A stretch of 64,000 bases of DNA, taken from NCBI GenBank assembly GCA_963796455.1, contig CAWCLO010000007.1:229859-293858 (forward strand), in the 5' to 3' direction. Source of the stretch: Candidatus Sulfomarinibacteraceae bacterium (GTDB lineage: Bacteria > Acidobacteriota > Thermoanaerobaculia > Thermoanaerobaculales > Sulfomarinibacteraceae). The notes beneath the pieces were generated by a model, which saw nothing but the letters and a program-made list of their open reading frames with translations, did not search any database and was not told where the DNA came from. A program made the position numbers and the translations under genes. Shown piece by piece: positions 16,755 to 17,570 of this stretch. Every line of letters begins with the position of its first letter. Positions within the stretch are counted from its first letter, which is position 1.

Positions 16755-17570
16755 TGACAAAAAGTGGTTTACGGGTTGGTTTTTGGCATATCCGGCTCGC
16801 GGTTGTCCGTGCCCGTGCCCGTGCCCGTGCCCGCGCCCGCGTCCGCGTCCGCGTCCGCGTCCGAATTGCAGCGGCAGCGACAGTGTCCAGCGTCAGCGAC
16901 AGGCAACGGCGAACAGGGACAGCGGTCAGTGTTCAGCGACGGAGAGCAGCGGCAGCAGTCTGGAGTTCATGCGGCGCAGTGGCCACCACCGGGTCGTTCC
17001 AAGGAAGGGGTAGCCGGTGGGCGGCCGATGTCAAGGACAGGCAGGGTGCAGGGCATCCTTGACATCGGCCACCACACCGGCTTGTGGGAATGGGCATGAA
17101 CGACCCGGAGGTGACCATGTCCAACGCCGCCACGAATACCAACCTTGTTGCCCACTCGAAAGCCCTCGAAGCAGCAGGCATCGCGATCAAGCTTGTAATG
17201 ACGGTTCCATCGCCGCTGAAGTCCATAGCCGATCAGGTGATCCGGTCGGCAAGTTCAGTCCCCGCGAACCTGGCAGAAGGTCATGGCCGCTTCGGTAGAG
17301 ACCGGTTGAACCACTGGAGAATCGCCTACGCCTCGGCCAAAGAGGTCGACAGCCACCTGAAACTCCTCGCCCACGCCGGGGCGATCAGCCCGAACGGAGC
17401 CGGTGAAGCGATGAAGGCCTTCGATCAGGTTCGTGCGATGACCTGGCGGCTCTTGAATCCGACCAAGTAAGGGCTGTTCGCTGCCGCTGATGACTGAACG
17501 CTGCCGCTGGCTACTGTTCGCCGTCGCTGTCCCTGATCGCTATCCAAGACCCTGTCTTGGACAAGAGTCA
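16755..17570 (+). mobile_element. TIR element copy E2 (four-helix-bundle cargo; left terminus missing)
   Basis: Left arm GTGGTTTACGGGTTGGTTTTTGGCATATCCGG, hexamer array, conserved core, hairpin leader, ORF, right end CTGTCTTGGACAAGAGTCA followed by TCCAGCA. Confidence 0.85.
17117..17470 (+). CDS. Four-helix-bundle protein (23S rRNA IVP/TIGR02436-like), copy A, 117 aa
   Basis: DQVIRSASSVPANLAEGHGR...IAYASAKE; RBS GGAGGT just before ATG 17117. Confidence 0.88.
   Translation: MSNAATNTNLVAHSKALEAAGIAIKLVMTVPSPLKSIADQVIRSASSVPANLAEGHGRFGRDRLNHWRIAYASAKEVDSHLKLLAHAGAISPNGAGEAMKAFDQVRAMTWRLLNPTK

Follow-up and report, generated by a model that had tools for sequence, protein, structure and literature searches.

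The window analyzed here, a stretch of 64,000 nt on contig CAWCLO010000007.1 of a Candidatus Sulfomarinibacteraceae bacterium, harbors several copies of a cassette in which a 139-nt fold-back leader stands directly before a small gene. The assembly of this genome (G000) comprises 5.0 Mb and is 90.5% complete. The cassettes A, B and C and one ORF-less form are arranged in the window as follows:

16755-16805, plus strand: remnant of the IS4-derived left segment of copy A; the terminal repeat itself is missing
16806-16975, plus strand: upstream hexamer array and CAGCG-type patchwork, limits approximate
16981-17119, minus strand: copy A leader, a fold-back whose predicted active form is the folded minus (template) DNA strand
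17107-17114, plus strand: Shine-Dalgarno sequence GGAGGTGA within the outer (downstream) stem, from sequence, with computed accessibility
17117-17470, plus strand: ORF of copy A, a 117-aa four-helix-bundle protein (TIGR02436 / PF05635), from profile scores and a fold model
17473-17551, plus strand: CGCTG-type patchwork, roughly complementary to the upstream patchwork
17552-17569, plus strand: right terminal inverted repeat of copy A, IS4 type
18337-18964, minus strand: copy B, left terminal repeat missing, right terminal repeat at 18337-18354
18490-18828, minus strand: ORF of copy B, 112 aa with an early stop; its leader lies at 18826-18964
20839-21700, plus strand: copy C, a complete cassette with both terminal repeats and the 9-bp target duplication ACGCTGGAT
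21071-21209, plus strand: leader of copy C, followed by its ORF at 21207-21560
22046-22501, plus strand: ORF-less S-type form with the 9-bp duplication ATCCAGAAT

The S-type form has the same shell and 5' arm, and a REPIN-like doublet replaces the promoter core and the ORF. Further ORF-less S-type cassettes were seen at 29111-29500, about 10265-10700 and about 35120-35600. The window also contains an octamer array of about 19 units (29938-30108), three tandem repeats of 113 nt (49427-49783), a near-identical duplication of more than 1 kb whose copies lie about 5.2 kb apart (50043-56450) and, at about 61000-62200, a 358-codon DDE transposase frame (PF01609) whose own inverted ends are unrelated to the cassette ends. 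Between 15791 and 20414 the DUF924 gene is inverted relative to the dnaC-like and glycosyltransferase genes when compared with most relatives. Eight of nine loci with dnaC show the other order, and since one locus (L137) has the order of this genome without any cassette, an inversion by recombination between copies A and B is not claimed. The best DUF924 relatives are 63-76% identical, which is too distant for base-level empty sites.

The leader of copy A consists of three nested stems. In the outer stem 16981-16999 pairs with 17098-17116, and the latter arm contains GGAGGT (17107-17112) next to the ATG at 17117. The middle stem is formed by AGCCGGTG (17012-17019) and CACCGGCT (17075-17082), and the inner one is a perfect 15-bp duplex (17023-17037 with 17056-17070) in which TTGACA is opposed on both arms. 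These stems, the buried ribosome binding site (RBS) and the opposed hexamers had all been described in a first-pass annotation and were found in place; an extra in-frame ATG slightly upstream (ATGAAC, 17096), inside the 3' arm, was absent from it. RNA folding of 16960-17140 gave -98.8 kcal/mol (z -6.04), a value equaled by none of 200 shuffles, and folding of the leader as DNA gave -51.8 kcal/mol for the minus strand versus -47.3 kcal/mol for the plus strand. The Rfam scan that the annotation had proposed returned seven weak matches, all far below the cut-offs. Its view that the leaders are near-invariant was borne out, A and B differing at 4 and A and C at 6 of 139 positions, and its estimate of the divergence between ORFs A and C agrees with the 10 amino acids and 27 silent codons that were counted. 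All three copies it had listed are present, as part of a genome total of 68 full leaders.

The copy A protein scores above both curated cut-offs (58.5 bits vs 24 for TIGR02436 and 55.8 vs 33.8 for PF05635), and its predicted structure has four helices (pLDDT 93). The model is similar to XCC0516 (2GSC) and BT_0352 (2RLD) with a TM of about 0.83, and more weakly (about 0.79) to Avd of diversity-generating retroelements (4DWL). Such a retroelement was rejected, as the assembly holds no reverse transcriptase and adenine-biased variation was not seen. The family and the four-helix fold are shared with the 23S rRNA IVP proteins, whereas the cassette lies outside rRNA genes: no 23S match was found in any related locus fetched, and the single 23S gene of G000 (3011 nt) carries no cassette. 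Four other TIGR02436 genes in this genome lack the hairpin leader (C4:1278079, C1:983116, C9:2705 and C10:733016), and the short-repeat arrays on their flanks differ from gene to gene and are mostly inverted. In the literature searched, mostly open-access texts judged by titles and the first lines of abstracts, no published description of such an element was found.

The vehicle of leader and gene in this genome is an IS4-derived cassette with 9-bp target duplications. The two youngest copies are 99.1% identical, and their shared sequence runs from end motif to end motif. Of the 270 end motifs in the genome, 148 are arranged as 74 inward-facing pairs; 21 of these pairs are flanked by a perfect 9-bp direct repeat and none by repeats of 7, 8 or 10-12 bp, and when one mismatch is allowed the 9-bp repeat is found in 39 of 74, shuffles giving 8.9 (at most 17). 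That heptamer arrays imitate the 9 bp through a 2-bp duplication was ruled out by 23 non-array targets, at which identity is 0.68 at 9 bp versus 0.21-0.29 at lengths 3-8 and 10-14. The cassette ends match those of an IS4 element in genome G017 (L221) at 18 of 18 terminal bases and over about 100 alignable nt; the transposase of this element scores 251 bits against NF033592, and a further IS4 element (L252) also has a 9-bp duplication. For the IS4 family, target duplications of 8-10 bp and CA ends are listed in Table 1 of PMC2266710. A cognate transposase for the cassette ends was not found in the 90.5%-complete assembly. The only DDE_Tnp_1 match in the genome has ends that differ from the cassette ends, and C6:1-223, considered as the end of an autonomous IS, adjoins a tRNA-like stretch and no transposase. 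Leader and gene were probably moved by an IS4 transposase acting in trans.

The shell is lineage-specific. Both shell ends were present in 7 of 87 homologous loci, and shell hits numbered 86 in G006, 0 in G004, 0 in G014, 2 in G033 and 1 (stray) in G052, the latter four genomes having 38, 12, 62 and 44 ORF matches, respectively. Within the same shell, 72 ORF-less forms carry the REPIN-like doublet and 8 carry one shared deletion, and since these forms spread too, the hairpin core is not needed in cis for movement. The deletion, seen in at least 8 copies (C1:1000025, C1:470291, C1:1137370 and others), removes the sequence between leader position 48 and approximately base 170 of the ORF. The doublet resembles repeats around a Y1 transposase at C1:952748, and 72 of 76 doublets lie in the shell.

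The copies are scattered on the chromosome between housekeeping genes. From 176 leader HSPs, 68 full leaders were obtained, and 57 of them are followed by an intact 117-codon frame. No replichore bias was detected (full copies 40/68, p 0.18; S-type 35/72). The upstream neighbor is co-directional in only 34 of the 63 copies with a called neighbor (crude ORF calls), and the downstream neighbor is convergent in 45 of 66. Pairwise comparison of the ORF copies gave dS 0.34 and dN/dS 0.14, in line with the selection on the protein that the earlier annotation had claimed. Linkage between ORF copy sites decays with distance, from r2 0.14 within 5 nt to 0.02-0.03 beyond 60, and the copies are therefore mosaics. 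Private ORF variants show pN/pS 0.5 versus 0.14 for shared variants, and this weaker constraint suggests that it is mainly the spreading copies on which selection acts. Deviation from the majority base is about 0.7-3% per site in the leader stems and the capping loop versus 16% at four-fold sites, and no position of TTGACA deviates in more than 1 of the 68 copies. Covariation within the genome is almost nil (1 compensatory cell, 46 one-sided changes and 110 breaks).

The ORF was found in 33 of 61 related genomes, and 132 related loci yielded 100 distinct leaders, of which 87 were parsed and 13 were not. Selecting leaders of less than 85% identity left 48, and with two rows from locus L100 set aside, 46 homologues were analyzed. 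In these, 96% of cells pair, and 30 of 40 pairs show compensatory changes (193 cells), counts that are inflated, with independence overstated, by the relatedness of the homologues. None of 500 shuffles reached this value, and slid structures pair at 32-48%. Because 30 of 40 pairs covary, the hairpin structure is under selection, as had been claimed; a lack of covariation, named in the first-pass annotation as part of the result that would speak against it, was not observed.

Several loci depart from this pattern. At L083, L002, L053, L062, L064, L066 and L115, ATGAAC is immediately followed by about 110 inserted nt that contain hairpins of their own and end in AAC, and in several of these loci the upstream promoter core is deleted and the ORF intact. 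The insert had no Rfam match in the two loci scanned, L002 giving an unrelated Acido-Lenti-1 just below the cut-off. At L100 two intact four-helix-bundle genes stand head to head on one fully symmetric hairpin, which may reflect an inversion or an error of assembly.

The distribution of wobble pairs, together with the promoter geometry described below, points to the minus (template) DNA strand, and not the mRNA, as the folded molecule. Non-Watson-Crick pairs that are G.T on the minus strand outnumber those that are G.T on the plus strand, by 32:2 in the inner duplex of the promoter and, with 37 rows aligned, by 23:3 in the outer stem; counted by column the ratio is 29 versus 6 of 40 pair columns, with 38 of 101 cells coming from one column. 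Singletons in the ORF reveal no mutational bias of this kind. In addition, a GNA triloop is found on the minus strand in 17 and on the plus strand in 3 of 28 mini-hairpins, and GCGNAGC has been described as a stable DNA mini-hairpin (PMC13037366).

Read on the minus strand, the leader of copy A contains the following parts:

17029-17034, minus strand: -35 hexamer TTGACA on the predicted non-template arm, from sequence and conservation
17013-17028, minus strand: paired spacer of 16 nt (16-17 nt in homologues), with strong covariation
17007-17012, minus strand: partial -10 element TACCCC with T-12 paired, A-11 unpaired and T-7 absent, from homologues and the 68 copies
17000-17011, minus strand: pre-opened bubble, non-template side, 12 nt, from homologue geometry
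17083-17097, minus strand: template side of the bubble, with a predicted transcription start at 17094-17096 (ATGAAC) placed by the register of the homologues
17038-17055, no strand: capping loop with a 3-bp mini-hairpin; relatives vary, and the loop is flipped in L045 and L100

In the sigma-70 open complex, -12 is paired, A-11 is the open junction and the bubble spans 11-13 nt. A corresponding order is found in the homologues. On the minus arm TTGACA, four of whose six positions are invariant or nearly so, is followed after 16-17 nt by TA in 40 of 46 homologues (40 of 48 including L100), and a range of 16-18 nt also gives 40 of 46. All 68 genome copies retain T-12, and 66 of the 68 retain A-11. 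In the 45 rows where a -10 could be assigned, -12 lies in a base pair in 35, -11 is never paired and the loop opens exactly at -11, a position that is partly assigned by construction. The A of ATGAAC falls at +1 in 23, at +2 in 8 and at +3 in 9 of these rows (40 of 45), which gives the predicted start register, and a pyrimidine precedes ATGAAC in 42 of 43. T at -7 is present in only 5 of 45 homologues, and a canonical -10 (TAnnnT) was thus not found. An ordinary double-stranded promoter toward the ORF was rejected: the plus-arm -35 has no TA at 12-22 nt in 46 of 46.

Of the features of Frpo-type plasmid promoters, a stable template-strand fold-back and a -35 box in the stem at promoter spacing were found. 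The reading that we favor, and hold to be fairly probable, is that the hairpin is a single-stranded-DNA promoter placed before the small gene; that the leader mimics an open complex in the manner of the Frpo promoters appears to us equally credible. When single-stranded, the minus strand would fold into a structure with a paired -35 box, a spacer of 16-17 bp, a bubble from -11 and, downstream of it, a duplex. To the host sigma-70 RNA polymerase this fold would look like an open complex, from which a short mRNA would start at or near ATGAAC. With the 5' arm absent from this mRNA, little would obstruct its RBS. A double lock is predicted otherwise: in the double-stranded form the coding strand lacks a -10, and in read-through RNA the RBS would be covered by the fold. 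The single-stranded state would probably arise at DNA entry, by transformation or conjugative transfer, or in repair gaps. ComEC is present in G000; IS4 transposition is double-stranded and is not known to include a single-stranded stage.

Some observations count against the promoter reading. In the model the short mRNA from ATGAAC still pairs part of the SD, and 13 of the 100 leaders that precede intact ORFs were unparsed, several having the core deleted. The symmetric hairpin of L100 has neither TA nor bubble. Finally, the capping loop varies no more than the stems do within the genome, which the model does not explain.

The fold also occurs away from the gene. A covariance model (R1) built from the 46 leaders matched a hairpin in genome G386 (L259:1501-1645, E 2.5e-9) that has no RBS or gene behind it. 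This hairpin is flanked by an IS3 transposase remnant (3' part) on one side and by the right IS end on the other, with -35, 17 nt and TA on the minus strand. The phylum-wide search with R1 gave 1 of 150 genomes, which, with 19 candidates scored per genome, is no measure of spread. A pattern search in 301 genomes of the phylum gave matches in four besides G000; the pattern contained the TA and the -35 pair, and the stems, outer duplex and mini-hairpin were not part of it. In G415 two hairpins with the full architecture (L283:1450-1601 and L286:1451-1600) lie directly 3' of a gene for a 920-aa TrwC relaxase-helicase. They match R1 with E 3e-11, best on the predicted strand, have a complete -10 (TATGCT/TACACT) and no RBS or gene behind them, and are candidate polymerase-primed single-strand origins. 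The pattern hits L280-L282 and L285 and the plasmid hit L278 were not convincing family members.

The same fold without a downstream gene argues for a DNA device that serves single-stranded DNA and not for a lock on the RBS. In IS10 and IS50, fold-back inhibits translation of read-through transcripts, and the first-pass annotation had suggested silencing of this type. If this lock on the RNA were the primary function, another promoter would have to drive the gene. The outer stem does covary in 13 of 16 pairs, including those across the SD, and the plus-strand fold has a z of -6. When the cost of opening the region from the SD to ATG+10 was computed for 63 own copies and 40 relatives, its median was 27 kcal/mol in read-through RNA versus 7 in mRNA from ATGAAC, and the predicted lock of the RBS thus stands. 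However, silencing leaves the invariant -35, the TA found at 16-17 nt on the minus strand only and the folds without a gene unexplained, wobbles favor the minus strand even in the outer stem, and the upstream neighbor is co-directional in only about half of the copies (34/63). As a primary function we therefore regard the RNA lock as unlikely. Like in IS10/IS50, RBS and start codon are predicted to be paired in transcripts from upstream; unlike there, the stem measures 139 nt, the promoter geometry lies on the opposite strand and the gene does not encode a transposase. Since the leader is built like a single-stranded-DNA promoter, the burial of the RBS in read-through RNA is likely a secondary, side benefit.

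The gene-free sites keep alive another explanation, according to which the fold is mainly a single-strand origin at which the polymerase primes second-strand synthesis, gene expression being incidental. Related hairpins beside a relaxase gene and at an IS3 end with no gene behind them are consistent with it, and polymerase-primed sso sites have been described (PMC4595007). On the other hand, the predicted +1 coincides with a conserved ATG that is followed by an SD, and coreless forms spread well (72 S-type forms, 8 with the shared deletion). No circular or single-stranded form was seen either. No sequencing run contained half of the sequence words, and the contigs from 4 of 24 runs were collapsed mixtures that showed no end-joined form and were uninformative about start sites. 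We consider an origin function of this kind improbable as the main role of the leader.

Still less probable, in our estimate, is that the hairpin has no promoter role and is either bound by the Avd-like protein, a ligand function that the first-pass annotation had raised as its alternative, or a palindrome maintained through template switching and gene conversion. The similarity to the Avd fold, the invariance of the loop within the genome, the mosaic copies and the flipped loops, which show recombination inside the repeat, would fit such a role. Yet the loop ranges from about 20 to 57 nt in relatives, and symmetric repair would not account for wobbles biased to one strand, for a TA that stands at a fixed distance on one side only or for a bubble edge that is always in the same place. 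That an antisense RNA from the convergent neighbors engages RNA polymerase in the manner of 6S RNA, as a template or a decoy, is very improbable: the bubble geometry resembles 6S RNA, the downstream neighbor is often convergent (45/66) and the wobble bias cannot separate RNA from DNA, but the base-specific conservation of TTGACA and the GNA mini-hairpins suit DNA, an Rfam match is lacking and the relaxase-linked relatives point to single-stranded DNA.

Returning to the single-stranded-DNA promoter, we tentatively propose, as one possibility, that TIGR02436 genes of this type are selfish genes whose expression is confined to the time when the DNA carrying them is single-stranded, as during entry by transformation. 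The Avd-like protein might then aid the survival of the molecule or its recombination into repeat arrays. The portable hairpin might also be used beside relaxase genes and IS3 ends, with IS4-type ends as occasional vehicles. If the promoter reading is true, it would provide the first regulatory handle on TIGR02436, a large protein family without a function, and would explain why many dispersed copies keep an intact gene seemingly without an ordinary promoter.

As a mobile unit, the cassette resembles the mobile insertion cassettes (MICs) defined in PMC6199540. Like MIC231 and IS4-family MITEs it has two terminal repeats around a passenger gene, no transposase, a length of about 0.8 kb and 9-bp duplications (PMC6199540, PMC2266710), and its ends start with CA and carry a T at the ninth position, a pattern that PMC2266710 lists for IS4Sa in its Table 1. 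Unlike these elements it reaches a far higher copy number here, and in most relatives passenger and hairpin occur without these ends.

With regard to the leader, the closest likeness is to Frpo-type promoters, single-stranded-DNA stem-loops that rebuild -35 and -10 and are shut off upon conversion to double-stranded DNA (PMC9849209, PMC11541004, PMC12672017). As in Frpo/ssi and the class 2-3 promoters of the leading regions of F, ColIb-P9 and pESBL, a long imperfect template-strand fold-back precedes a gene, -35 and -10 are rebuilt in the fold and the double-stranded form is predicted to be silent. The F leader before a klcA-like gene shows a similar minus-strand order of -35, spacer end and TA and a GCGAAGC mini-hairpin, and differs in having a full -10 and a 3-nt loop. 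The leader described here is, unlike Frpo, chromosomal, present in 68 copies and outside any conjugative leading region, and its -10 is cut to TA with a full 12-nt bubble, versus a complete -10 with a small loop. No relaxase context was seen for the cassette in G000. Searched against 72,556 plasmids, the leader sequence gave no match, only three short chance DNA hits; R1 did not match F Frpo1/2 or the klcA-like leader, and no homology to Frpo/ssi classes 1-2 was found. The ORF protein had no plasmid or viral homologue, and two DNA patterns were likewise without a viral match. The leader most likely works like an Frpo-type promoter yet stands outside the known classes. Single-stranded-DNA promoters are known from conjugative plasmids, and a chromosomal, multicopy form whose bubble is already open and whose -10 is reduced would carry this mechanism into a new setting.
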